Assembly (NCBI GenBank): GCA_963727775.1
Contig: CAVSHB010000001.1
Coordinates: forward strand, 288,001 to 352,000
Reading direction: 5' to 3'
Source: an uncultured Nitrospiraceae bacterium
Lineage (GTDB): Bacteria > Nitrospirota > Thermodesulfovibrionia > Thermodesulfovibrionales > SM23-35
DNA length: 64,000 nt
Made by a program: the position numbers and the translations under genes. Below, in pieces: positions 3,666-60,192 of the stretch. Under the pieces are notes generated by a model that saw only the letters and a list, made by a program, of their open reading frames with translations, did no database searches and had not been told where the DNA came from. Within the stretch, counting starts at the first letter, position 1. The number at the start of each line of letters is the position of its first letter.

Positions 3666-3822
3666 GGTAACAACTTCGAATAAGCGTTATATATAGGAAT
3701 AGCATAAGATTAAACCTCACTATTTAATCATAGGGGAGACTAATTTTATAGCTATTAAAAAAAGAAACCTTCTGCAAGAATATGTTTATGGAGAAACAAA
3801 ATTCTTTTGACAGGAGGTTTCT

Positions 3823-5114
3823 ATGGAACAAGTAGATGGTATCAGACTTAGGGAGTTTCGACAAGTCAAGAAAGAGATACGTGGCTCCGACCAGTATTTG
3901 ATCGTCGGCATCGACGTGGCCAAAGAGAGGCACAATGCCTTTTTCGGCACGGCTAACGGTAAAACGCTGCACAAGGGAGTGATCTTTGACAACACGATTG
4001 AAGGATTTGAGAAACTGCTGACGCTGACAGAAGCACTTAAGGTTCAACATAACTTTACGAAGGCGGTCTTCGTCTTGAGCCCACAGCTAATTACCATAAG
4101 CCTTTGGGAGAGCATCTCATTAAGTGCGGGCATATGGTTGTTTTGTTATCGGGGGCGGCAGTAAAAAACAACCGACCGCTTCTGGATGGCAGATGGGACA
4201 AGCACGACACTAAGGATTCCGCAAACGTAGCCGACCTCATCTGTCAGGGGAAATTCCTCTACTATGAGTACCCGGACCCGAAGATGCAGGATCTGAGGAA
4301 TCTCCTTTCCTTAAAGAGACGACTCAAGAAAGAGGAGCACAGTATCCGGGTTCGCATCCGCAATCAGCTTCTGGCTCAGTATTTCCCTGAGATGGATCGG
4401 CATTTCGGCCCGGCAGTGAGCCTGGCCGTAGTCGGACGCTGTCTTAATCCCTCGGTAATCGCGGGGATGGAATTCGATGAATTCCGCAGGCATGTTGCCA
4501 TCAGCAGGATGAATATTGCCCAACAAAAGCTGTTGCATACAATTTGGCAGATAGCCCCTGAGTCCATTGGATGTTATGTAGGGGACGTAGTACCGTTCGA
4601 GGCGAAGGTGATGGTATCGAAGCTTAATCAGGTGCGAGAGACGATCAAAGAGGTGGAAGATAAAATAGAGGATATGTGCCTACAGTTTCCGGAATACCCA
4701 TGCCTTTTGAGTATCCCAGGCTTTGGGCCGGATGTTTCCTCAAAGGTCCTGGGAGCGATAGGTAATCCCTTTCGCTTTACGAGCTATAAGCAGATCCTGA
4801 AGATGGCTGGCTTCGATCTTTGCGCGGAACGCAGTGGAAAGGCTTCAAACGGCGCAACGCCGGTTATCTCCAAGCAAGGGAAAGCTGATCTTCGATATGC
4901 CTTGTATCAGGCTGCTTTCATCGCTTCCCATCATAACAAAGCCTTTATGACTTATTACACCAACAAGCTTAGAGGCAGACAGAGAGAAAAAGGAATCAGC
5001 ACGAAGATGCATGTTAAGCTGGCCGCAAAGCTCCTGGTTATTGCATGGACCCTGATGAAAAAGAAGGAGCTATTCGATCCAAAATATTTTAATAGGGAGG
5101 ATACTACAATATAG
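3823..5114 (+). pseudogene. IS110 DEDD recombinase, frameshifted
   Basis: GIDVAK, KHDTKD, ERSGK motifs; 1-bp deletion near 4072 relative to copy B (FGLEPT region). Confidence 0.9.
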
Positions 5115-5360
5115 GTCTGATCGAAATAATTCAACTGGGGGCTTCCTGTGAAGCTGTTTCTGTTCCAAGAGCCCTAAAAAATTACTTTGATGCGGAGAGC
5201 CCGAGAATAAGCGTTGAGGCTGAATGACCTCGTGAATGACAATACAGGGCCTCTCACTGAACTTGAGAATTTGGATAAAGGATGATGGGCGGTCCCGCAT
5301 TGCGGAACATGCCGGATAAACGTAACGATAAGAAATCAGGTTCGCTTTAAGTGAGAAAAA
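5115..5360 (+). ncRNA. Putative bridge RNA/seekRNA of IS110 copy A (boundaries approximate)
   Basis: Scaffold conserved with copy B; GAATAAGCGT (5205-5214) equals the left flank and GAATGAC (5234-5240) is the reverse complement of the right flank. Confidence 0.8.
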
Positions 5361-5489
5361 GCATCACAGAATTACTCCGTCGTTCGCAAAAACGAAATAG
5401 GAGGGCTTTGCCCTTTAAACGGGTCAACAAGCAACCTTATTAATTTTTATAGACTATTTTTTTTATTGACAGGAGGCACTATAGGATGT

Positions 5490-50108: not shown

Positions 50109-50249
50109 GTGTGGAGAACATCCTATAGTGCCTCCTGTCAAGACAAAAAACATCTGGGAAATTTACTTAAATATCAATGATCGTTATCCGAGATCTTGCA
50201 AGAACAATAGTCTGCCGTACGTCCATCTGGACGATAGTATTTTTTCTCG

Positions 50250-50496
50250 ACGCACTCTCTCACTACAATCGAACTTGATCTCTGATAGTTACGTTTATCC
50301 GACGTGTTCCGCATTGAGCGTACCGCCCATCATCCCTTATCCAGACTCTCAAGTTCAGTGAGAGGCCCTATATTGTTCTCCACGAGGTCTTTCGCCTCAA
50401 CTAAGCCAAGCTCGGGCTCTCTGCGTCTTGTTTTTGGGGCCTCCAGAACAGAAACGGCTTCACAGGAAGCCCTCAGTTAAGTTCTTTTGATGTGGC
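50250..50496 (-). ncRNA. Putative bridge RNA/seekRNA of copy B (boundaries approximate)
   Basis: Guides GGCTTAGT (50400-50407) and GTGGAGAAC (50375-50383) match the element's own flanks. Confidence 0.8.
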
Positions 50497-51789
50497 CTAT
50501 ATTTGGATATCCCCCTTATTGAGATATTTTGGATCGAATAGCTCCTTCTTTTTCATCAAGGTCCATGCGATAACCAAAAGCTTTGCGGCTATCTTTACAC
50601 GCATCTTCGTACTAATTCCCTTTTCCCTCTGCCGACCTCTGAGCTTATTGGTGTAATAAATCGTAAAATCTTTGTTATGAAAGGAAGCGATTAGAGCAGC
50701 CTGATATAAGGCGTAGCGAAGATCGGCTTTCCCTTGTTTGGAGATTACCGGCGTTACGCTGTTTGAAGTCTTTCCGCTTCGCTCCGCGCAAAGGTCGAAA
50801 CCAGCCATCTTCAGGACCTGCTTGTCGCTCGTAAAGCGAAAGGGATTACCTATCGCCCCGAGAACCTTTGATGAGACATCCGGCCCAAAGCCAGGGATAC
50901 TCAAAAGGCATGGGTATTCCGGAAACTGTAGGCACATATCCTCTATTTTATCTTCCACCTCTTTGATCGTCTCTCGCACCTGATTAAGCATGGATACCAT
51001 CACCTTCGCCTCGAACGGCACTGCGTCTCCTACATAACATCCAATGGAATCAGGGGCTATCTGCCAGATCGCCTGCAGCAGCTTTTGTTGGGCAATATTC
51101 ATTCTGCTGAGGGCAACGTGCCTGCGGAATTCATCGAATTCCATCCCGGCGATCACCGAGGGATTAAGACAGCGGCCGACTACGGCCAGGCTCACCGCTG
51201 GGCCGAAGTGGCGGTCCATTTCAGGGAAATACTGGGCCAGAAGCTGATTGCGGATGCGAACCCGGAGGCCATGTTCCTCTTTCTTGAGTCGTCTCTTTAA
51301 GGAAAGGAGATTCCTCAGATCCCGCATCTTCGGATCCGGATATTCATAGAATAGGAATTTCCCTTGGGAAATGAGGTCGGCTACGTTAGAGGAATCCTTG
51401 GTGTCGTGCTTATCCCATCTGCCATCCAGAAGCGTGCGGTTGTTTTTTACTGCCGTCCCCGCTACCAAAACAACCATATGCCCACACTTAATAAGATGCT
51501 CTCCCAGAGGCTTATGGTAATTGGCTGTGGGCTCAAGACCAAAGACCACCTTTGTAAGGTCATGCTGGACCTTAAGCGCTTCTGTCAGCGTCAGCAGTTT
51601 CTCGAATCCTTCAATCGTGTTGTCAAAGATCACTCCCTTGTGCAGCGTTTTGCCGTTAGCCGTGCCGAAAAAGGCATTGTGCTTCTCTTTAGCCACGTCG
51701 ATGCCGATGATCAAATACTGATCGGAGCCACGTATCTCTTTCTTGACTTGTCGAAACTCCCTAAGTCTGATACCATCTACTTGTTCCAT
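50497..51789 (-). CDS. IS110 DEDD recombinase, intact
   Basis: GIDVAK, LEPT, KHDTKD and ERSGK motifs. Confidence 0.95.
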   Translation of the reverse strand: MEQVDGIRLREFRQVKKEIRGSDQYLIIGIDVAKEKHNAFFGTANGKTLHKGVIFDNTIEGFEKLLTLTEALKVQHDLTKVVFGLEPTANYHKPLGEHLIKCGHMVVLVAGTAVKNNRTLLDGRWDKHDTKDSSNVADLISQGKFLFYEYPDPKMRDLRNLLSLKRRLKKEEHGLRVRIRNQLLAQYFPEMDRHFGPAVSLAVVGRCLNPSVIAGMEFDEFRRHVALSRMNIAQQKLLQAIWQIAPDSIGCYVGDAVPFEAKVMVSMLNQVRETIKEVEDKIEDMCLQFPEYPCLLSIPGFGPDVSSKVLGAIGNPFRFTSDKQVLKMAGFDLCAERSGKTSNSVTPVISKQGKADLRYALYQAALIASFHNKDFTIYYTNKLRGRQREKGISTKMRVKIAAKLLVIAWTLMKKKELFDPKYLNKGDIQI

Positions 51790-52187
51790 AGAAACCTCCT
51801 GTCAAAAGAATTTTGTTTCTCCATAAACTTATTCTTACAGGAGGTTTCTATTTTTTAATAGCTATAAAATTAGTCTCCCTTATGATTGAATGGGGAAGTT
51901 TGATCTTATGCCATTTCTATATATAACTAAGCCGGTGCGCCGGATATGGGGATTCGATTAATTCTCCCGGAACTTTTTCTATCGAAGAGGATATGGTTTA
52001 TGGAGCATCTGTCTTATTTTGATCTGCATGAGATCATCCTGATACGAAAATTGAGGCTGAGATTGCGACCATTGCAGCTGGATAGTATCCCAAGGTCTGA
52101 TTTCAGACAATAGGGGAGCATAGCGAAACAGGATGCTGTTTTCGCAGGTTGATAGAGCTATGATTTTTGAGCTATCGCCGGTGTGCA

Positions 52188-52535: not shown

Positions 52536-53531
52536 TTAAAGTGCTTTTAAGAATGCCATCAACCCCGGCTGATCTTTCCACCGTCTTGATTGCTCTGAAG
52601 TAAATATCTCACAGTGGGCAAGTGCCTTTGCCTTCATTTCGAGATCGACCTCAGCATAGACATTTGTGGTATCTAGCGACACATGCCCCAGCCATGCACG
52701 GATTGTATTAATATCCACACCTGCGCGAAGAAGGTGAACTGCGCAGGAATGACGAATTATATGTGCACTGACTCTTTTCGTTCTCATTGAGGGGACTTTG
52801 TTGCTTGCTTTGATAACATAACGCCTAACGAGGGCATGAATGCCGAAGCGAGTGATTGTCTGCCCCCGACAGTTGAGGAAAACCTGTTCGCTATCCTGGC
52901 GATCGGCAATGAGAGTGCGTAAAGTATTGGCTGTTAAAGACCATAAAGGACAGATTCGTGTCTTGCCTCCCTTGCCTTTAATCTTGACTGAAAGCGAATA
53001 ATCCAGGTCGAGATCGTCTACAGTCATATTCGCAGCTTCATGGGCGCGGGCGCCAGTATTGTAAAGAAAAAGAAGTACGGCATAATCTCTAAAGCCTTGT
53101 TTGGTGGAAGTAACGGGAGCATTAAGCAGGGCATCCATTTCTTGTTTGTCGAGATAAGACATCGCAGCCTTTGCAGTTTTTTTGAAAGGGATAGCTCTGA
53201 TCTGTCCACACCAGATGATGTGTTCCGGACATCGTTCGCCGATAAAACCGGCGAGGGCGTGAATTGCGGCAAGGCGCTGGTTGCGAGTGGCTATAGAACA
53301 GGATCGATGCTCCTCTATATAAAGCAGAAAAAGACGAATTACCTCAGGGGATATATGCTCTACAAGCAGCTTGTCTATAGGTTTTCTGACCTTCTCAGCG
53401 ATGAAAGGGAGCATCAAGGCCAGAGCATCGCGATAACTGGATTGTGTATTTAGCGACAGATTACGCTCTTCCACCAAGTATTCCATAAGGAAGCGTCGCA
53501 CCCAATATCCGATAGAAGTTACGTTAGACAT
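52536..53531 (-). CDS. RIT tyrosine recombinase C
   Basis: YNTGAR, HIIRHS and WLGHVSLDTTNVY motifs. Confidence 0.92.
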   Translation of the reverse strand: MSNVTSIGYWVRRFLMEYLVEERNLSLNTQSSYRDALALMLPFIAEKVRKPIDKLLVEHISPEVIRLFLLYIEEHRSCSIATRNQRLAAIHALAGFIGERCPEHIIWCGQIRAIPFKKTAKAAMSYLDKQEMDALLNAPVTSTKQGFRDYAVLLFLYNTGARAHEAANMTVDDLDLDYSLSVKIKGKGGKTRICPLWSLTANTLRTLIADRQDSEQVFLNCRGQTITRFGIHALVRRYVIKASNKVPSMRTKRVSAHIIRHSCAVHLLRAGVDINTIRAWLGHVSLDTTNVYAEVDLEMKAKALAHCEIFTSEQSRRWKDQPGLMAFLKAL

Positions 53532-54468
53532 GATTCACGTCCGATAGAACATAATGTTCAAAACGCAAATTTGCTTCCCGCAAAAGATCAGGAGTCATGC
53601 TCAAATAGCATTGGGTCTCCGCCACATCAGTATGGCCCAAATAGGTTGATAATTGAGGCAGCAAGCGCTGGACATCAGCGCCTTCCCGGTACCAGGCTTC
53701 AAGACGGTGAACTGAAAAAGTGTGACGAAGGTCGTGAATCCTGGGATAGTATCGAGTGCCGTCCCGGCGAGGCATCCCGGATAGGTTTCGCAAACGACTG
53801 AAAGTTTTTTGCATGCGGCCATAGGATAAAGCGTGGCCAGTGCGTGTGGCAAAAAAGGCGGAATCTTCCTTAAGTCGGCAGGGCAACAGTCGCCTTTTTC
53901 CCAGATAGGAGTCAAGGTGGTCAGTTAACCGAGGGCCGATGGGTACGAGACGTGTCTTATAGAATTTGGTATTGCGCACTGTGATAAGGCTATCCGAAAC
54001 GTTAACATCAGCAATCGTTAGAGAAAGCGCTTCGCTGATACGAAGGCCTGTTCCATAAAGGGTAAGCAAAATGGTTCGGAAGGTGGTTGCCTGAAGAGGA
54101 CTTATTGGGGATTTAAGCGAGTTGGTAGCGGAAAGGAGGCGGTGCAGTTCCTCGGTGGTGTAAATATATGGTTCCAGAGTCGCCGGACGTTTAGGTACCA
54201 TCTTTGGAAGCGGAGACTTGTCGATATGACCATGGGTCAGAGCAAAGCGATAGAAACCACAGAGGACTTCATACTTCCGGTGCCAGAAGGTAGTGATCGG
54301 ACCTTCACCTGCAAGGAATGCTGCTGCAGTATCGGGATTAACTTCTTCGATCTCTATATTGCCCATAGCTTTGCAAAAAGATCTGAGTACCACAGCATCA
54401 GACCGGTAACACATACCAATGGACTGTTTTAGCGACACATACTCGGTAACAAGTTCTGAGAGTTTCAT
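53524..54468 (-). CDS. RIT tyrosine recombinase B
   Basis: TGLRISE, TKFYKTRLVP, HDLRHTF and LSTYLGH motifs. Confidence 0.92.
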   Translation of the reverse strand: MKLSELVTEYVSLKQSIGMCYRSDAVVLRSFCKAMGNIEIEEVNPDTAAAFLAGEGPITTFWHRKYEVLCGFYRFALTHGHIDKSPLPKMVPKRPATLEPYIYTTEELHRLLSATNSLKSPISPLQATTFRTILLTLYGTGLRISEALSLTIADVNVSDSLITVRNTKFYKTRLVPIGPRLTDHLDSYLGKRRLLPCRLKEDSAFFATRTGHALSYGRMQKTFSRLRNLSGMPRRDGTRYYPRIHDLRHTFSVHRLEAWYREGADVQRLLPQLSTYLGHTDVAETQCYLSMTPDLLREANLRFEHYVLSDVNHV

Positions 54469-55706
54469 TCCAGCCCTCCCATATCAAACTTAGCTACCTC
54501 GCGAAGACCTGACAGATTCACCTTGGCATAGATCCTCGTGGAGAGAGAACTTCGATGCCCTAGGTGATCGCCGACCTCCTTGAGGGAGAAGCCCTCGGCA
54601 ACCAGGTGGGCGGCGCACGCATGCCGCAATGAGTGGGGCCCATGATGGTGAGTGCGTATCCCGAGCTTCACCATTCTGTTACTGACCACAGGATAAAGTG
54701 CTCCTAATGAAAAAGGACGATATGGGGGCAAGAGAGTGAGAAATATCTCTCGATATGAAGAGTGGGGACGCACTTCCTGTAAATAGCGGATTATCGCGTT
54801 GCCTACTATTGGGATCAATGGGTATGTTTGTCTTCCTCTCAGCTTAACTCGGGGTACCGACATAAGTCTCTGTTCCCAGTCGATATCGTCAAGCCTGAGA
54901 GTTGCTACCTCAGTTGATCTCAACCCATAGATCGCAAAAAGCATCACGATGGGTTTGTCTCGTATGTCACTGGCTTGATCTGTCTCCATGCTCTCTATCA
55001 AGAGTCTCACGTTTCCCCAAGATGGTCCCGACGGCAATTGTTCTTGGGCAAAGATACGAGGGCCACGTATATCGGGGGCGATTGAAGACGAACACCACCC
55101 CCGTGAAGCCGCGTACTTGAAAAAGGCCTTCAGCGCGGTCGCCATGTGTTTAACCGATATGCGACAATTGCCCTTGTCACCGTAATGGGTAAGAAACGCG
55201 TCAATATCTTTGAGGCAAACGGCTGAGATATCACAACTCCGAGTGCCATACCAGCGTAGAAACCGTTCAACGTAAGAGCAGTTCCCTCGGATAGTCTGAG
55301 AAGTGAACCCTCGTTCGTTCTTCATCCATGTCCTGAAATCTTCAAGCAAATGACCAAACGGAATGGAAGTATCTTCTCTCCAACAGCCCAAAAAACGTAG
55401 CCACGATCTTGCTGCATTGACAAAGCGACTGCGAGTACAGTGCGGATTAAGCGCTTTTCCCCAATATCGTTCCCGTTCTGTCCATCCTCGGGCGACAGCT
55501 TCGACCTGATTCAGGGTTACTCCGTTTTCAAAAGAAATACGTAGCTTCTTTGCGACCCATAAAAGTTCTCGCGCAATGTTCTGTAAAGTCGAGAGAGAAT
55601 ATCCTTCTTGCTCGCAGTGCTTAAGATAACGCTCCCTCTCCTCTTTGTACGGGGCCTTCTTGTGACGGGATAGAATTGAGAGTTTTGTGTAAAGCTTTTC
55701 AAACAT
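54465..55706 (-). CDS. RIT tyrosine recombinase A
   Basis: YGLRSTE, HSLRHA and LGHRS..STRIYAK motifs. Confidence 0.92.
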   Translation of the reverse strand: MFEKLYTKLSILSRHKKAPYKEERERYLKHCEQEGYSLSTLQNIARELLWVAKKLRISFENGVTLNQVEAVARGWTERERYWGKALNPHCTRSRFVNAARSWLRFLGCWREDTSIPFGHLLEDFRTWMKNERGFTSQTIRGNCSYVERFLRWYGTRSCDISAVCLKDIDAFLTHYGDKGNCRISVKHMATALKAFFKYAASRGWCSSSIAPDIRGPRIFAQEQLPSGPSWGNVRLLIESMETDQASDIRDKPIVMLFAIYGLRSTEVATLRLDDIDWEQRLMSVPRVKLRGRQTYPLIPIVGNAIIRYLQEVRPHSSYREIFLTLLPPYRPFSLGALYPVVSNRMVKLGIRTHHHGPHSLRHACAAHLVAEGFSLKEVGDHLGHRSSLSTRIYAKVNLSGLREVAKFDMGGLE

Positions 55707-55843
55707 GACCGGACCTCCTCTAATAGAGACTTTCCAGCCATATAACGGCAATTACTTATGTGTTGTCAAATCAAAAATAATCATTGCAAATTAAGAAAAT
55801 TGACTGACTTCACAACATAAGTGAATACATAACATAAATCAGG

Positions 55844-55863
55844 TTATGTGTTTAAGCACATAA
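55844..55863. repeat. 20-bp palindrome beside the RIT end
   Basis: TTATGTGTTTAAGCACATAA between ATCAGG and CCTGAT. Confidence 0.85.
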
Positions 55864-56454
55864 CCTGATGCGCACAAATCGATGCGGAAGCACATGAAGA
55901 AGGAACCTTCTTATGAACTCATCGGCCTTAAGAGTCATGATCTTTTGTTTATCACCATCGGCATAGTCCCGCCAGCGGAAGGAAACATTGCCGTCTTCAA
56001 CGTTTAGGACACGATTATTACTGATAGCAATCCTGTGGGTATATCTGCCCAGATACTTGAGGACACCCTCGGCGCCGTCAAAAGGCGGCTTGCAATATAC
56101 AACCCACTTCTTATGGTAGAACTGTCCTCTGAACACCTCAAAGGTTCCGGGGTCTTTAAGATGACGGATACCGCCAGGGAAGATAAGATCACCTGATTCA
56201 AACCTGTTTTTGAGATGGTCCAGGAACTTGCCCCTGAACAATGAGGACATAACCCTTACAGGCATGAAAAAACCTTTCCTGCACGATACCCAATGTTTTC
56301 CATCAGGTGACAATCCGCCGCCGGGTACGACACAGTGAATATGGGGATGATCCATAAGGTTTTGTCCCCAGGTGTGAAGGATGCCGATAAAGCCTGTATG
56401 TGCGCCGAGGTGTTTCGGATTATTGGAGAGCTCCATAAGTGTCTCGGAGACTGC
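55864..56454 (-). pseudogene. IS91-family (HUH/Y2) transposase, central fragment
   Basis: LHTWG, HPHIH, YLGRYTHR and RRFLLHVLP motifs; N-terminal part deleted. Confidence 0.9.
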
Positions 56455-57127
56455 CTGAGCGTATGTGGGCTTACTGGTTTTGTTATGCCGGCGCGCTCTT
56501 TGGCCTCAACGAATATCTGTCGTATTGTACTTAGACATACATGAGCTCCTTCCTTTTGTCAAACAACCAGTCTTTCGGACGATATTCTCTCCAGTATTGC
56601 CTCAGACACTCAAGAGCGGTCTGAGACAGGATGGTGTAACGGTCTTTGCCCCCCTTGCCTTGCTGAACTCTTACCATCATCCGCTTGCTGTCGATATCGC
56701 TTACCTTAAGGTGTGCTGTTTCGCTTATCCGGAGGCCTGCAGAATAGGTAATCGTCAGGATCGCCCGGTGCTTTAGATTCTCCATGACGGAAAGCAAAGT
56801 CTTGACTTCTGCCAAATCCAGAACCACAGGAAGTTTGTTTTTCCCTCTGGGACAATGAATCTTCTCCACGACCTCTTCCCGTTTTAACGTGTGCTTATAT
56901 AGAAACTTCAAACCCTGGTAATAAAACCGGTATGTCCCCTTGGCCAACTTCCGTTCGTTCAAAAGATACAGCAAATACTCTCTGAGTTCCTTCTCTCCAA
57001 GTTCCTCCGGCGACTTGCCGAAGTACTTTGCATAATTGCTTACTTCCCTCAGATAAACCTTTTGGGTCTTGGGGGTAAGTCCCTTCAACTGAAGCTCTGC
57101 CAACATCTGTTCTCTCAATGTGCTCAT
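56455..57127 (-). pseudogene. Tyrosine integrase (SAM-like N-terminus), frameshifted and truncated at HTLR
   Basis: KLPVVL, YSAGLRISE and GKGGKDR motifs; frameshift after WLF; fused to the transposase fragment. Confidence 0.85.
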
Positions 57128-57466
57128 ATCCAATCTCCTTTGAATCGATATGCGCCGACGAAGGCCGACGGGGAAACAAAGGAAATTGTAAAAAGACTTC
57201 GATTGTTCAACAAGGGGGGGAATAGCAGACTAACTTCTACAACTCAGAAAAAGGTCTATCTTATCCAGAAAAGGCTCACGCCTCGTTAACCACCGCGCAG
57301 CGGTTTAGTTCTTCGGTACAAACTCTTCATGAGTTGCCGCTTCGCATAAATGTGGAGCTTGCTATATTGTTGTAGAGTTAGGCCTTGTTAAAGAAGGCTA
57401 TACTCTTTCTTGATTCAGACCAATGTGCGAGTTGGTTAAATCCAAACCAAAGAAAGGAGTATAGCC

Positions 57467-58729
57467 ATGAAGAAGAGTAAAACAAAAAAGTTTAAAGTAG
57501 TCAATGGTAGAACGATGATTGTGACAGCTGATATGGGAAAGGATAGACATTTTGGATACTGGCGCTGTCCGGACGGAAGCGATGTGAAGCCCTTTGCCTT
57601 CTGGAACAACGGCAGGGGTTTCCAAGAGTTCTGGGATCGTGTATCTTATGCCAAAAAGCTCCATAACATCGAAGATATTGTTTTTGGATACGAGTCCACC
57701 GGGCCGTATGCCGAACCTCTTGTTCATTTCATGCGTGCGAGAGGCGTACACATGGTACAAGTAAGCCCTATGCACACTAAGAGGCTTAAGGAGCTTCAGG
57801 GTAATTCGCCGAACAAGACCGACCAGAAAGACCCAAAGGTTATCGCTGATATTATGGCACTTGGCCACGCCCTGACTGTAGTGATCCCGGAAGGTCCAGC
57901 GGCCGAACTCAGGAGGCTCACTCAGGCCAGGGAAAGGAGCAACGAGCGTTATGTATCCCTGGTGAACCAGCTCCAGAGCTTGCTTGCGATTATCTTTCCT
58001 GAGTTTTTGCAGGTAATGAAGGATGTAAAGACGTTGACTGCCCGATATCTCCTTGCGCAGTGCCCAGCACCCAAGGATATTGTCGCGTACAGTCTTGATA
58101 ATTTGAGTGCAACGATCAATAAGGTCAGCCGCGGAAAGCTGAAGGAAGATCGCGCCAAGGCCCTCTATGAGGCTGCAACAGCTTCTATAGGTGTAACCGA
58201 AGGCATGACGAGCATTATACGTGAGATAAGAGAACTTCTTATCGCCATGGACGCTGCTGAGTCCTTTACCGGGGATCTGGAAAAGGAAATGGGGTATTAT
58301 CTGAAGCAGATTCCCTACAGTGGCTCGATCCTCTCGATAAAGGGGATTAAAGAGGTTACCACTGCCGGTCTTATCGGTGAAGTGGGTGATTTTCGGAAGT
58401 TTCAAACCCTCTCCGAGATCCTAAAGCTCGCAGGGCTGGACCTTTATGAGATCAGTTCTGGCCAATACAAGGGGAAGCGACGCATATCTAAGCGAGGCCG
58501 TCACCTGCTGCGTAAACTTTTGTACTTTGCCTCGCTCAACACAGTCCGCAGAGGTGGAATAATGCACGATCAATATCAAAAGTACCTTGAGCGGGGCATG
58601 CCTAAGACCAAGGCGCTGATCGCCGTAGCAAGAAAACTTCTTGGAATCATATTTGCTGTTGTGCGTGACCAAAGTGTATACAAAAAAGATTTCTCTATAG
58701 TCTCACTTCAATACCAGGAGGCTGCATAA
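57467..58729 (+). CDS. IS110 DEDD recombinase
   Basis: ADMGK, YESTG, KTDQKD, ISSG and ISKRG motifs. Confidence 0.93.
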   Translation: MKKSKTKKFKVVNGRTMIVTADMGKDRHFGYWRCPDGSDVKPFAFWNNGRGFQEFWDRVSYAKKLHNIEDIVFGYESTGPYAEPLVHFMRARGVHMVQVSPMHTKRLKELQGNSPNKTDQKDPKVIADIMALGHALTVVIPEGPAAELRRLTQARERSNERYVSLVNQLQSLLAIIFPEFLQVMKDVKTLTARYLLAQCPAPKDIVAYSLDNLSATINKVSRGKLKEDRAKALYEAATASIGVTEGMTSIIREIRELLIAMDAAESFTGDLEKEMGYYLKQIPYSGSILSIKGIKEVTTAGLIGEVGDFRKFQTLSEILKLAGLDLYEISSGQYKGKRRISKRGRHLLRKLLYFASLNTVRRGGIMHDQYQKYLERGMPKTKALIAVARKLLGIIFAVVRDQSVYKKDFSIVSLQYQEAA

Positions 58730-58743
58730 CTTATAGTATTGGC

Positions 58744-58910
58744 GTGTAAGCGGGGAGATTACCGACCTGATACCTAAGGCGGCTGAGCCGACCTTCATGC
58801 GGAGCTTGTAACTCCCCGCTTGCACCTTAGTCTCGATTAAGCAAGGTCAGGGCTCTGTTGAGACCCTCGAATTACCAGTGTCAGGCAAGGTGCTACACCA
58901 AAGACTAAAG
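58744..58910 (+). ncRNA. Putative bridge RNA/seekRNA of element C
   Basis: Stem GTGTAAGCGGGGAG / CTCCCCGCTTGCAC enclosing ACCTGATAC and ATGCGGAGCTTG, which match the flanks; second stem TTAGTCT / AGACTAA. Confidence 0.65.
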
Positions 58911-59329
58911 TGACTTCCTCCTAATGGAGATGGAAGTGAGAAGGTTGATATAAGGTTAAGTGAAAGGAGCCAAGAGGAGGCATAAAAAAGAGAAACGCCG
59001 AATCCAGGGGATACCGTAATATGGGTCATGCTGAGATAATCGATCCTATAGCTTTCTACGAAGCCGCTTTTTCAGAATTGGCTCTCAAACATGCAGAATG
59101 GATTACGTAATGAGACAAGGGATCTGGGGGCAAAGAACGAAGCAGAAACCATTGAAGCCAGGAAACCTTAGTAGTGGCTTGTCTCTATCAGAGGGGAGTT
59201 ACTCCGTAAAAAGTTCTTGACAATAATAAACCAGTATCAGGTGGACCTCGCGGTGGCCGGGTTCTTCAGAACGTATCGAGTGGGTCAGATAACCTTTTCA
59301 TAAGGTCTCCACTTTGGTAAAATAATGTC

Positions 59330-59515
59330 ATGGATTTATTTAAATCATTCACTTTTAAATGGTGGCAGGGAAGCTTTTTCAAATTATCCATGATTTCGCT
59401 TGGAATCATCTTGGGTGTCTACTTCCAAACATTCTTCCTCAAGTGGATCGTTATTGTGACAATTATTTTTATTGTGCCTGCAATCTATCTTTTCCGCGTA
59501 TGGTGGAGGCAATGA
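59330..59515 (+). CDS. Small two-TM hypothetical protein
   Basis: 61-aa hydrophobic ORF. Confidence 0.55.
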   Translation: MDLFKSFTFKWWQGSFFKLSMISLGIILGVYFQTFFLKWIVIVTIIFIVPAIYLFRVWWRQ

Positions 59516-59598
59516 CTTAGCTAGCTGCTTCACGCTGAAAGTGGATGTTGAATAATTGATTGTAATGCGTTAATGAACGCAATACTTAATATTTTGAT

Positions 59599-60192
59599 CT
59601 ACTTACTTCTGCGAGAGGCTTTCATCTTTTCACTGCCCTTATCCGCGTTCGCCTTCGCCTTAGAAGAGTATAGGAGGGTACGCATTAGTCCTGTTCTGTT
59701 ATCAACACCTGTTTTTATATAAATGTTGCTCAGATGGTCCTTTACGGTTTGCTCAGATATCTCAAGATCCTCAGCAATTTCAATTTTATTACGGCCGTCA
59801 AGAACTCTTCTAAGAATATCGTTTTCTCGCCTCGACAGCCTGAACTGTTGTCGGACTTCGTCCATGTTCAGCTTATTGGAAATGGTTTCTTCAATAATGA
59901 CAAGATAGATAATTGGATCCGGTTTATCGTAAGTATAGATCCTGAATATCCAATGGCTCGGGGAACCTCTGAATTTCTTTGTGAAACATATTTCTCCGGG
60001 GAATAGTTCGTTTAATCTCCCGCTGTCGATGGCATCGAATATCCTGTTTTTGATAATTGTTATTTCAGCGGGAAGATCGAACCGGCCAAGAAAGCTGGTT
60101 GCCTTTTTGTTCGTGTAAAAAATGCTCTTTCGATTGAAGATTATCAGACCTATGGGGAGTTTTTTCAGAATAAACTCTATCTCTTCGTTCAT
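59599..60192 (-). CDS. LuxR-family HTH regulator with PAS-like N-terminus
   Basis: LSRRENDIL and ISEQTVKDHLSNIY motifs. Confidence 0.85.
   Translation of the reverse strand: MNEEIEFILKKLPIGLIIFNRKSIFYTNKKATSFLGRFDLPAEITIIKNRIFDAIDSGRLNELFPGEICFTKKFRGSPSHWIFRIYTYDKPDPIIYLVIIEETISNKLNMDEVRQQFRLSRRENDILRRVLDGRNKIEIAEDLEISEQTVKDHLSNIYIKTGVDNRTGLMRTLLYSSKAKANADKGSEKMKASRRSK

Follow-up and report, generated by a model that had tools for sequence, protein, structure and literature searches.

A stretch of 64,000 nucleotides from an uncultured Nitrospiraceae bacterium, termed the window here, very probably harbors an intact and recently mobile insertion sequence (IS) of the IS110 family, which appears to choose its sites through a bridge (seek) RNA encoded downstream of its recombinase gene. 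This reading is carried by the ends of the element, its AG core, the scaffold of the RNA and the co-variation of the RNA loops with the flanks, all of which are demonstrated below by comparison with further copies, an empty paralogue and related loci. An earlier reading of the sequence alone (the sequence-only reading) had already recognized an IS110-family element and pointed to two segments downstream of the recombinase, which correspond to the two halves of the predicted target-binding loop. The features are as follows, with positions in the window.

57312-57357, + strand: left flank, an intergenic hairpin repeat and presumptive target, shared with the flank of copy L002 and with the empty paralogue
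57340-57347 and 57350-57357, + strand: hairpin arms CTTCGCAT and ATGTGGAG
57350-57355, + strand: left target half (LT)
57356-57357 and 59233-59234, + strand: left and right copies of the AG core
57358-59234, + strand: IS110-family insertion sequence, 1,877 bp with one AG core copy counted
57358-57466, + strand: left end (LE), 109 nt, beginning with CTTGCTATATT
57363-57368, + strand: -10-like hexamer TATATT in LE
57467-58729, + strand: gene of the IS110-family DEDD/Ser recombinase, 420 aa
58749-58893 (approximate), + strand: core of the predicted bridge (seek) RNA, two stem-loops, both carrying an internal loop and topped by an apical hairpin
58765-58773, + strand: candidate 5' guide of the target loop, ACCUGAUAC, 9/9 complementary to 59234-59242
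58797-58804, + strand: candidate 3' guide of the target loop, AUGCGGAG, reading as left flank plus core
58805-58808, + strand: CUUG, putative handshake guide, equal to the first 4 nt of LE
58840-58845, + strand: candidate 5' guide of the donor loop, AGCAAG, complementary to the LE start CTTGCT
58874-58878, + strand: candidate 3' guide of the donor loop, ACCAG, equal to the end of the right end (RE) plus core
58879-58885, + strand: UGUCAGG after ACCAG, its first base a putative handshake guide
58895-59200, + strand: lineage-specific spacer of ~300 nt between bridge RNA and right end
59217-59234, + strand: right end TTGACAATAATAAACCAG, terminating in ACCAG
59217-59222, + strand: -35-like hexamer in the right end
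59235-59242, + strand: right target half (RT), TATCAGGT

Extent, core and coding capacity of the element

As the sequence-only reading had suggested, other copies and empty sites were sought to fix the ends, and four genomic copies together with an empty paralogue placed them at 57358 and 59234. Across precisely this interval only 0-2 bases separate the four copies, all of the differences lying inside the gene, and their RNA is identical, while outside it their flanks diverge; in none of the four is the recombinase frame interrupted. In the empty paralogue the sequence runs ...ATGTAGAG^TATCAGATGG with a single AG, which is present at both junctions of the element. The flanks and the empty paralogue thus fix the ends as well as a perfect AG core (CT on the minus strand). 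An imperfect or bulged core, deduced previously from a left CTTGCTA and a right CAGTA, is dispensed with because the unoccupied paralogue shows a perfect AG, and the four copies likewise yield a clean AG.

Relatives retain the start of LE and a right end of the form ...TTGACA...ACCAG. By pattern, AG followed by CTTGCTAT was found as the left junction in 67 of 69 elements examined, with AG preceding all 67, and TTGACAnnAAnAAACCAG as the right end in 40 of 69; the right junctions were located with a pattern demanding ...CAG, so that the right-hand AG in the relatives is partly given by construction. The longer non-coding side lies downstream of the gene (RE of 505 nt against 109 nt for LE). LE and the reverse complement of RE share a best local alignment of 11/14, an imperfect subterminal inverted repeat, and RE joined to LE in silico produces a promoter-like junction, TTGACA-17 nt-TATATT. 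The spacer at 58895-59200 gave no nhmmer match in any relative and occurs in its own genome only within the four IS copies. Contigs of four DNA runs over 56900-59700 contained no joints, neither a circle junction nor an empty allele, and break at the repeat. Contigs of a 90-95% relative begin to match at 57356, preceded by unlike sequence, which was the sole, weak point among the contigs.

The recombinase was assigned to the family by Pfam (PF01548, 82.5 bits; PF02371, 72.5 bits) and by the NCBIfam model NF033542 'IS110 family RNA-guided transposase' (188.7 bits, the cut-off being 140). In an alignment of 13 sequences including IS4321, from which L017 and L073 with in-frame stops were left out, no variation is seen at D22, E76, D119, D122 or, within the S/T-G motif, G332; S331 is nearly invariant (T in IS4321), and ISKRG is also kept. 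The alignment to IS621 spans the E, D..D and SG regions.

The proposal that three mobile elements of the window, the two other IS110s and an integrase/IS91 element, have one target motif in common, TGTGGAG^CTT, is very unlikely. TGYGGAG is indeed enriched in the window (25 occurrences against 13.25 +/- 3.6 in shuffles), ATGCGGAG recurs at 5190-5197 in non-coding sequence of the first IS110, and TGTGGAG, read on the opposite strand, straddles the second one's right junction (50110-50116). However, in the present element CTT is the LE start of the IS rather than target, and the window contains the 10-mer, with at most one mismatch, 7 times where 3.6 +/- 1.9 would be expected, a count reached by 6 of 100 shuffles, and at none of the other IS110s there. 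Nor is it a genome repeat, since TG[CT]GGAGCTT appears 15 times genome-wide, 8 of them in the four IS copies or their junctions and only 7 elsewhere. Convergence of three elements lacks support because the other two IS110s belong to a different family with different targets: between them they have another right end in common, TTGACAGGAGGCACTATAGGATGT, the junctions that fit segments of their RNAs are those of each element itself (AATAAGCGTT; GUGGAGAACA), and these junctions are situated at different sites, in or beside a different palindromic repeat.

Still less probable is a longer element of ~57312 to 59246, in which the matches to the RNA would be internal and the loops would serve only intramolecular pairing or donor recognition. 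What speaks for it is that the alignment of L002 to the window begins at 57312 (query position 113) and that all four copies have TG(C/T)GGAG to their left and AGGTG to their right; yet the L002 alignment starts there because the hairpin repeat unit is common to both flanks, the similarity of L003 and L004 ends at 57349-57351, and the 57312-57357 unit exists IS-free at C1:489943-490002. Moreover, the window copy deviates from the other three in just these flanking bases while its interior is identical or 1-2 bases off, and all relatives break between AG and CTTGCT on the left and directly after ACCAG on the right. The true left end is accordingly not near 57316, a possibility that the sequence-only reading had itself raised, and the additional homology is the hairpin repeat serving as target.

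The guide RNA and its co-variation with the flanks

The RNA segment downstream of the gene is kept in 66 of the 68 relatives examined, and the RNAalifold consensus of 39 homologues comprises 38 pairs, 29 of which show compensatory changes, in two stem-loops with internal loops; many of its G-U pairs are compatible with the + strand only. The hairpin folds as a single sequence at -81.9 kcal/mol (z -3.41), and this fold agrees with the consensus in placing both target-matching segments in the internal loop of a long hairpin, the hairpin itself having been noted from the sequence. Rfam returned no family at threshold, snoR21, CRISPR-DR10 and MEG3_2 all scoring far under their gathering scores, and a U-tract terminator was looked for at the hairpins and none was found. 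The scaffold segment ACCUUC was considered as an alternative guide for GAAGGT, which is unlikely, as it is invariant in the family and forms an apical stem.

Both matches reported for these segments are real. ACCTGATAC at 58765-58773 is the exact reverse complement of GTATCAGGT at 59234-59242, and ATGCGGAGCTTG at 58797-58808 is identical to ATGTGGAGCTTG at 57350-57361 in 11 of 12 positions; the former segment is complementary to the top strand, while 58797-58804 is the same as the top strand. The worry that ACCUGAUAC has GUGUCAGG of the RNA itself as its sole partner did not materialize. At the left junction L002 and L003 match in 12/12 positions, the window copy and L004 in 11/12, and the 3' guide agrees with left flank plus core in 8/8 positions in L002 and L003 against 7/8 in the window copy. 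The cognate guide reads TGCGGAG, not TGTGGAG as previously given, and the mismatched copy is that of the window.

Taken alone, the target matches of the window copy are only moderately unlikely: in 1000 mononucleotide shuffles of the non-coding region, the 9-nt right match was attained 32 times, the 11/12 left match 18 times, and both once. The decisive support for the putative guides is the comparison across relatives, for which a family data set of 75 related loci was used. The longest cognate run of the 5' guide averaged 6.0 against 3.6 after permutation (0 of 5000 permutations, 15 distinct guides), and the cognate match of the 3' guide to the left flank was 4.4 of 6 against 1.96 (0 of 5000, 27 distinct guides). 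Measured against the scaffold, the 5' guide is shifted by one base between the element and several relatives.

In the donor loop, AGCAAG and ACCAG match the element ends; AAGCAAG shows little or no variation among the 39 aligned sequences and the start of LE shows none, RNA and ends both being constant and leaving no co-variation to compare. The base after ACCAG equals the first base of the right flank in all 21 distinct RNA/flank pairs (10 distinct strings; 13 of 10000 permutations), whereas the second equals the second flank base in only 6 of 21. In the window copy, UGUCAGG and the right flank TATCAGG are equal in 6 of 7 bases, and the remainder of the segment also pairs inside the donor stem with compensatory changes. 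One base of the donor loop therefore behaves as a handshake guide would.

Across the family, then, loop segments of the predicted RNA co-vary with the flanks inside a conserved scaffold. That the hairpins are merely a terminator or a transposase-regulatory structure whose flank matches arose by chance is the least probable alternative of all: each match is attained by 2-3% of shuffles in the window copy and the Rfam families all fall under threshold at the hairpins, but the co-variation of the variable loops and the missing U-tract terminator stand against it.

Target site and proposed mechanism

The hairpin unit of ~45 nt in the left flank also borders copy L002, and it occurs IS-free at G000:C1:489943-490002 with compensatory changes in its arms, where it runs straight into TATCAG.... 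The window copy is distinguished by its RT, TATCAGGT, which is unlike the TAGAAGGT of the other three copies and matches TATCAGAT of the empty paralogue. The right flank TAGAAGGT of three of the four copies has two mismatches to the 5' guide, and unoccupied paralogues carry TATC or TTTC; TAGA sites are occupied in 3 of 3 cases against 1 of 4 for TATC/TTTC sites. The notion that TAGA was carried along by the IS via a second AG was rejected, occupied and unoccupied paralogous sites aligning without a change of length.

A genome search for ideal empty targets, allowing up to 3 mismatches, returned 45 matches for ATGCGGAG+TATCAGGT and 14 for ATGCGGAG+TAGAAGGTG, all of them with at least 2 mismatches. 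The useful ones are the paralogue at C1:489987 and the TTTC-type sites C3:558808 and C2:240548.

By analogy with IS621 and the IS1111-type elements, the element would be excised as a circle, the RE-LE junction of which would form the TTGACA-17-TATATT promoter. The target in this case would be the 3' foot of the intergenic hairpin repeat, and the second loop would recognize the circle junction by AGCAAG and ACCAG. The DEDD/Ser recombinase would then exchange strands at the AG (CT) core without target duplication, after which CUUG of the target loop and U(GUCAGG) of the donor loop would pair with the non-cognate partner and favor insertion.

Relation to known systems and significance

Bridge RNA geometry, which the sequence-only reading expected if the target is read on the minus strand, holds and equals that of IS621, in which the 5' guide pairs with the bottom strand on the left and the 3' guide with the top strand on the right of a CT core (PMC11208160). 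The element shares with IS621 (IS110 group; PDB 8wt6) the DEDD and Ser catalytic set, an RNA with two internal loops for target and donor, loops predicted to pair with the bottom strand to the left of the CT core and with the top strand to its right, and putative handshake guides adjoining the core, whose logic has been described (PMC11208158, PMC13626964). In contrast, the RNA of IS621 lies in the left end upstream of the gene, while here it lies in the right end, the arrangement termed 'bridge RNA in the RE' by Durrant et al. 2024 (PMC11208160), and it is this position that accounts for the AG core and the reversed guide order relative to the gene. The protein similarity to IS621 is weak (phmmer E 1.1e-7, 34 bits), and the extensions identical to the non-cognate partner measure 4 nt and up to 6/7 nt against handshake guides of 2 nt.

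The reverse orientation emphasized earlier stands as far as the guide order is reversed, but it is nothing special, since the same order has been published for IS1111-type elements with the RNA downstream of the transposase, as set out by Siddiquee et al. 2024 (PMC11187229), where the seekRNA examples are ISEc11, ISKpn4, ISPa11 and IS4321. With these the element has in common a guide RNA and a long non-coding region on the downstream side of the recombinase gene, a segment complementary to the top strand placed 5' of one complementary to the bottom strand (the order given in PMC11187229), a repeated hairpin-like target, the absence of target duplication, and a junction promoter formed by the joined ends, here predicted from sequence. 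It differs in its recombinase, which at 420 aa exceeds the 330-350 aa given for proteins of the IS1111 family, in the replaced P of the GL-P----S(T)G motif (GLDLYEISSG), and in the imperfect 11/14 subterminal inverted repeat, the subgroup criterion being 7-17 bp. The recombinase falls outside the size and relationship that delimit the IS1111 subgroup (~330-350 aa, full-length relation to IS1111). Its similarity to the IS4321 transposase is weak and by BLASTP confined to the C-terminal part (36 bits, 25% over 142 aa; 21% in the alignment), and in pairwise comparison it is about equally distant from IS4321 (36 bits) and IS621 (34 bits). Other IS110s of the genome (e.g., window 50497-51789, minus strand, 430 aa) resemble it in their Pfam domains and the length of their recombinases, and they too have non-coding sequence downstream in which segments match the junctions of the respective element, but they differ in ends and targets at 24% protein identity.

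A joint reading combining the occupancy pattern with a separate lineage, marked by long recombinases, a bridge RNA in RE, an AG-oriented core and longer handshakes, is put forward tentatively and is rather improbable as a whole. Under it, the element and ~70 relatives may form a lineage that is neither classical IS1111 nor classical IS110, with recombinases of ~405-420 aa and hosts among uncultured Nitrospirota, Desulfobacterota, Planctomycetota and other lineages. Handshake extensions in this lineage could be much longer than the 2 nt of IS621, here reaching 4 nt in the target loop and as many as 7 nt in that of the donor, so that both RNA strands would be contiguous with the integrated junctions, and a tandem G.A/A.G mismatch at flank positions +3/+4 may be preferred over perfect pairing.

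As an intact RNA-guided IS, the element is a clean further example of the known IS110/IS1111 kind, its mechanism not being new, and biologically it appears to be an ordinary active IS aimed at intergenic hairpin repeats. It nevertheless provides a well-delimited natural bridge-recombinase system with ends, core, two loops, handshake positions, an empty site and four near-identical copies, drawn from a clade of long recombinases of uncultured bacteria whose kinship with the studied IS621 and IS4321 proteins is remote. Meanwhile, the 75-locus data set independently reproduces, for a right-end-encoded RNA, the co-variation of guides with flanks and that of the handshake, and orthologues like these are raw material for the engineering of programmable recombinases.

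Boundaries, core and target hairpin of the element

A genome search with the IS110-family insertion sequence returned eight matches, comprising four full-length copies (that of the window and three others, L002, L003 and L004) and four short fragments of flanking repeats. Within 57358-59234, the three other copies show 2, 2 and 1 base differences from that of the window, every one of them in the gene, and the sequence of the non-coding RNA region is the same in all four. Alignment of the flanks placed the left junctions (marked ^) as follows: window, ATGTGGAG^CTTGCT; L002 and L003, ATGCGGAG^CTTGCT; L004, cTGCGGAG^CTTGCT. The right junction is ...AAACCAG^TATCAGGTGG for the window copy, and all three others have ...AAACCAG^TAGAAGGTG. 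The homology of L002 with the window runs about 45 nt further left, from 57312, and this stretch is also present without the insertion sequence at an unoccupied, intergenic paralogue in the same genome (G000:C1:489943-490002), reading ...CATAAATGTAGAG^TATCAGATGG.

On the basis of the flank alignment and this IS-free occurrence, the element spans 57358-59234 (1,877 bp). The search for other copies or an empty site, as advised by an earlier sequence-only reading, thus fixed the ends, and a left end near 57316, which that reading had entertained, is not borne out, as the 45-nt extension also occurs without the element. The target reads ...ATG(C/T)GG-AG-TA..AGGT..., in which AG (57356-57357 and 59233-59234) constitutes the sole bases common to both junctions; the imperfect core or bulged base formerly proposed is superfluous, given the clean AG of the four copies and the empty paralogue.

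The shared 45 nt form a hairpin repeat with arms CTTCGCAT and ATGTGGAG in the window and CTCCGCAT and ATGCGGAG at L002, which differ in a compensatory manner between repeat copies; the insertion point of the element is the hairpin's 3' foot. Immediately upstream of it on the minus strand (55852-57133), a Y2 (IS91-type) transposase-domain fragment of 194 aa adjoins a truncated tyrosine recombinase of 200 aa, and both look like remnants. A small hairpin motif, CCACCGCGCAGCGGTTTAGTT, was found at four places (window 57290-57312; G000:C3:213039, C3:204679 and C1:1248428), directly past which the flanking sequences part, as though it were the end of another repeated element; it is similar to the left junction of a second IS110 family, CCGGCGCACCGG^CTTAGTT.

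The right end (RE) terminates in TTGACAATAATAAACCAG and the left end (LE) starts with CTTGCTATATT, and an imperfect inverted repeat (11/14) is common to the two ends. Joined at the core, they yield TTGACA, a 17-nt spacer and TATATT, by inference a junction promoter of the kind known from the family.

Recombinase and predicted bridge RNA

The gene and the RNA segments of the element are as follows.

57467-58729, plus strand: recombinase ORF, 420 aa, with domains PF01548 and PF02371, the two of the IS110 family
58765-58773, plus strand: target-loop 5' guide ACCTGATAC, exact reverse complement of GTATCAGGT (59234-59242)
58797-58808, plus strand: target-loop 3' segment ATGCGGAGCTTG, 11/12 identical to ATGTGGAGCTTG (57350-57361)
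58840-58845, plus strand: donor-loop AGCAAG, complementary to the LE start CTTGCT
58874-58878, plus strand: donor-loop ACCAG, identical to the last RE bases

The recombinase, whose frame is open in all four genomic copies, scores 188.7 bits with the NCBIfam model "IS110 family RNA-guided transposase", above its cut-off of 140. The 13 proteins aligned, among them IS4321 of plasmid R751 and a further IS110 of the window, all have D22, E76, D119, D122 and, in the S/T-G motif, G332; S331 is nearly invariant, being T in IS4321.

Immediately 3' of the ORF lies a long hairpin, whose internal loop holds both guide segments. Related loci were collected from other genomes, nearly all metagenome-assembled (75 loci; protein identity 44-73%, one 32%), and the downstream region was studied in 68 of them, the seven omitted having a partial gene only or being the most distant. 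A homologue of 58740-58900 was detected by nhmmer downstream of the gene in 66 of these 68. The alignment of 39 non-identical RNA sequences displayed a conserved scaffold broken by short variable segments, for which RNAalifold gave a pair of stem-loops, both comprising an internal loop and an apical hairpin, and 38 consensus pairs with compensatory changes in 29. In the window copy, the two target-loop segments fall in the first of these loops, and AGCAAG and ACCAG in the second. Since many consensus G-U pairs would become C-A on the opposite strand, the RNA is predicted to be read from the strand of the gene. The approximately 300 nt between the RNA and RE (58895-59200) have no homologue in the relatives or elsewhere in the genome; by eye, they include a candidate short open frame of about 29 codons from an ATG near 59022.

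Proposed guide pairing and handshake, and site occupancy

Direct reading of the sequence confirmed both target-loop matches formerly claimed. Among 1000 shuffles of the window non-coding region, 32 reached the right match, 18 the left match and one both, and it is the comparative evidence, not the window copy by itself, that makes the case for guiding. Among the 68 relatives and the window, a pattern search placed the left junction AG^CTTGCTAT in 67 of 69 elements, AG preceding all 67, and the right junction TTGACA...CAG^ in 40 of 69, where ...CAG is demanded by the pattern itself. The six bases of the 3' guide before AG agree with the cognate left flank at a mean of 4.4 positions, against 1.96 after permutation (0/5000 permutations; 27 distinct guides, 55 distinct guide/flank rows), and the mean longest exact run between the 5' guide and the cognate right flank is 6.0, against 3.6 (0/5000; 15 distinct guides). 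The complementarity of ACCUGAUAC and GUGUCAGG, raised earlier as a sign of purely intramolecular pairing, is present and is explained by the relation of both to the same flank.

To the right of AG, the top strand is the pairing partner of the 5' segment, and to the left of it the bottom strand is that of the 3' segment. Viewed from the minus strand, the layout is identical to that of IS621, in which the 5' guide is paired at the bottom left and the 3' guide at the top right, both overlapping a CT core (PMC11208160). The "reverse orientation" noted previously thus fits bridge geometry on the minus strand and is nothing special: Siddiquee et al. (PMC11187229) report a reversed order of the matches for elements with the RNA downstream of the gene, and in elements built this way it represents the published norm.

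CUUG (58805-58808), after the 3' guide, equals the first four LE bases, and UGUCAGG, after donor-loop ACCAG, is similar to the right flank TATCAGG. Both match by position the handshake guides of IS621; as described in PMC11208158 and PMC13626964, once strands have been exchanged those guides base-pair with the non-cognate substrate and tip the reaction toward insertion. The donor-loop base after ACCAG equals the first right-flank base in 21/21 distinct RNA/flank pairs (10 distinct strings; 13/10000 permutations), and the second does so in only 6/21. Since co-variation supports the first position only, and the rest of UGUCAGG also pairs inside the donor stem, where compensatory changes are seen against the relatives, an extended handshake is no more than a possibility.

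Three of the four copies lie at right flanks TAGAAGGT, with two adjacent mismatches to the 5' guide (G opposite A, A opposite G), and unoccupied related sites carry TATC (C1:489987) or TTTC (C3:558806 and C2:240546). Alignment of occupied with empty sites shows no difference in length, which rules out that the four flank bases were brought in by the element. Part of the occupancy pattern can be explained by homology among the sites, L002 and L004 being similar in their right flanks to the empty paralogue and L003 to the TTTC sites; a real tolerance of the tandem G.A mismatch, or a preference for it, is possible.

A relative with ten copies in one MAG (L029-L036, L054 and L077) inserts into short-repeat arrays, ...CACCGCAAAG^ACGCAAAGGACGCAGA..., where its left and right flanks are similar to each other.

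Other recombinases and family placement

Two elements of a second IS110 family are present in the window.

~3681-5489, plus strand: first element, gene with its N-terminal domain split between two frames
~50117-51900, minus strand: second element, four genomic copies, three in the same larger repeated context

The convergence of three elements on one motif, as earlier proposed, is not supported. These two share a right end, TTGACAGGAGGCACTATAGGATGT, unlike that of the 57358-59234 element; each has RNA segments in its downstream non-coding region that match its own junctions (AATAAGCGTT; GUGGAGAACA), and these junctions are located within or beside a different palindromic repeat, the first element interrupting ...GAATAAGCG^CATTCCGCTGCGAAGTTGCGGAATAAC... 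The 10-mer TG[CT]GGAGCTT, at up to one mismatch, occurs seven times in the window (3.6 +/- 1.9 expected), with none at either element. The genome-wide count, another suggested check, speaks against a shared target as well: 15 occurrences in 3.43 Mb, against about 13 for random sequence by our own arithmetic, eight of them accounted for by the four copies, each with one at its left junction and one in its internal guide, and seven scattered. The 7-mer TGYGGAG is about twofold enriched in the window (25 vs 13.25 +/- 3.6; 0/100 dinucleotide-preserving shuffles reach 25), an excess that falls short of showing a common target.

On the minus strand, 52536-55751 is taken up by three tyrosine-recombinase genes in succession, which overlap and each bear PF00589 (331, 314 and 428 aa), an arrangement reminiscent of a recombinase-in-trio element. 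The whole genome holds 25 matches to PF01548 and 24 to PF02371; these IS110-type recombinases belong to eight or more sequence families, an unusual richness for a genome of 3.4 Mb.

In the defining features tested, the element agrees with RNA-guided elements of the IS110 family. Its architecture is IS1111-like within the family, although IS1111 proteins are put at 330-350 aa in PMC11187229, against 420 aa here. The recombinase is about equally far from IS4321 (BLASTP, 36 bits) and IS621 (phmmer, 34 bits), and its best plasmid-borne relatives, about 33% identical, bear the sole name "IS110 family transposase". Judged from sequence, the type of mechanism would be one already known, and the element is rated as an additional member.
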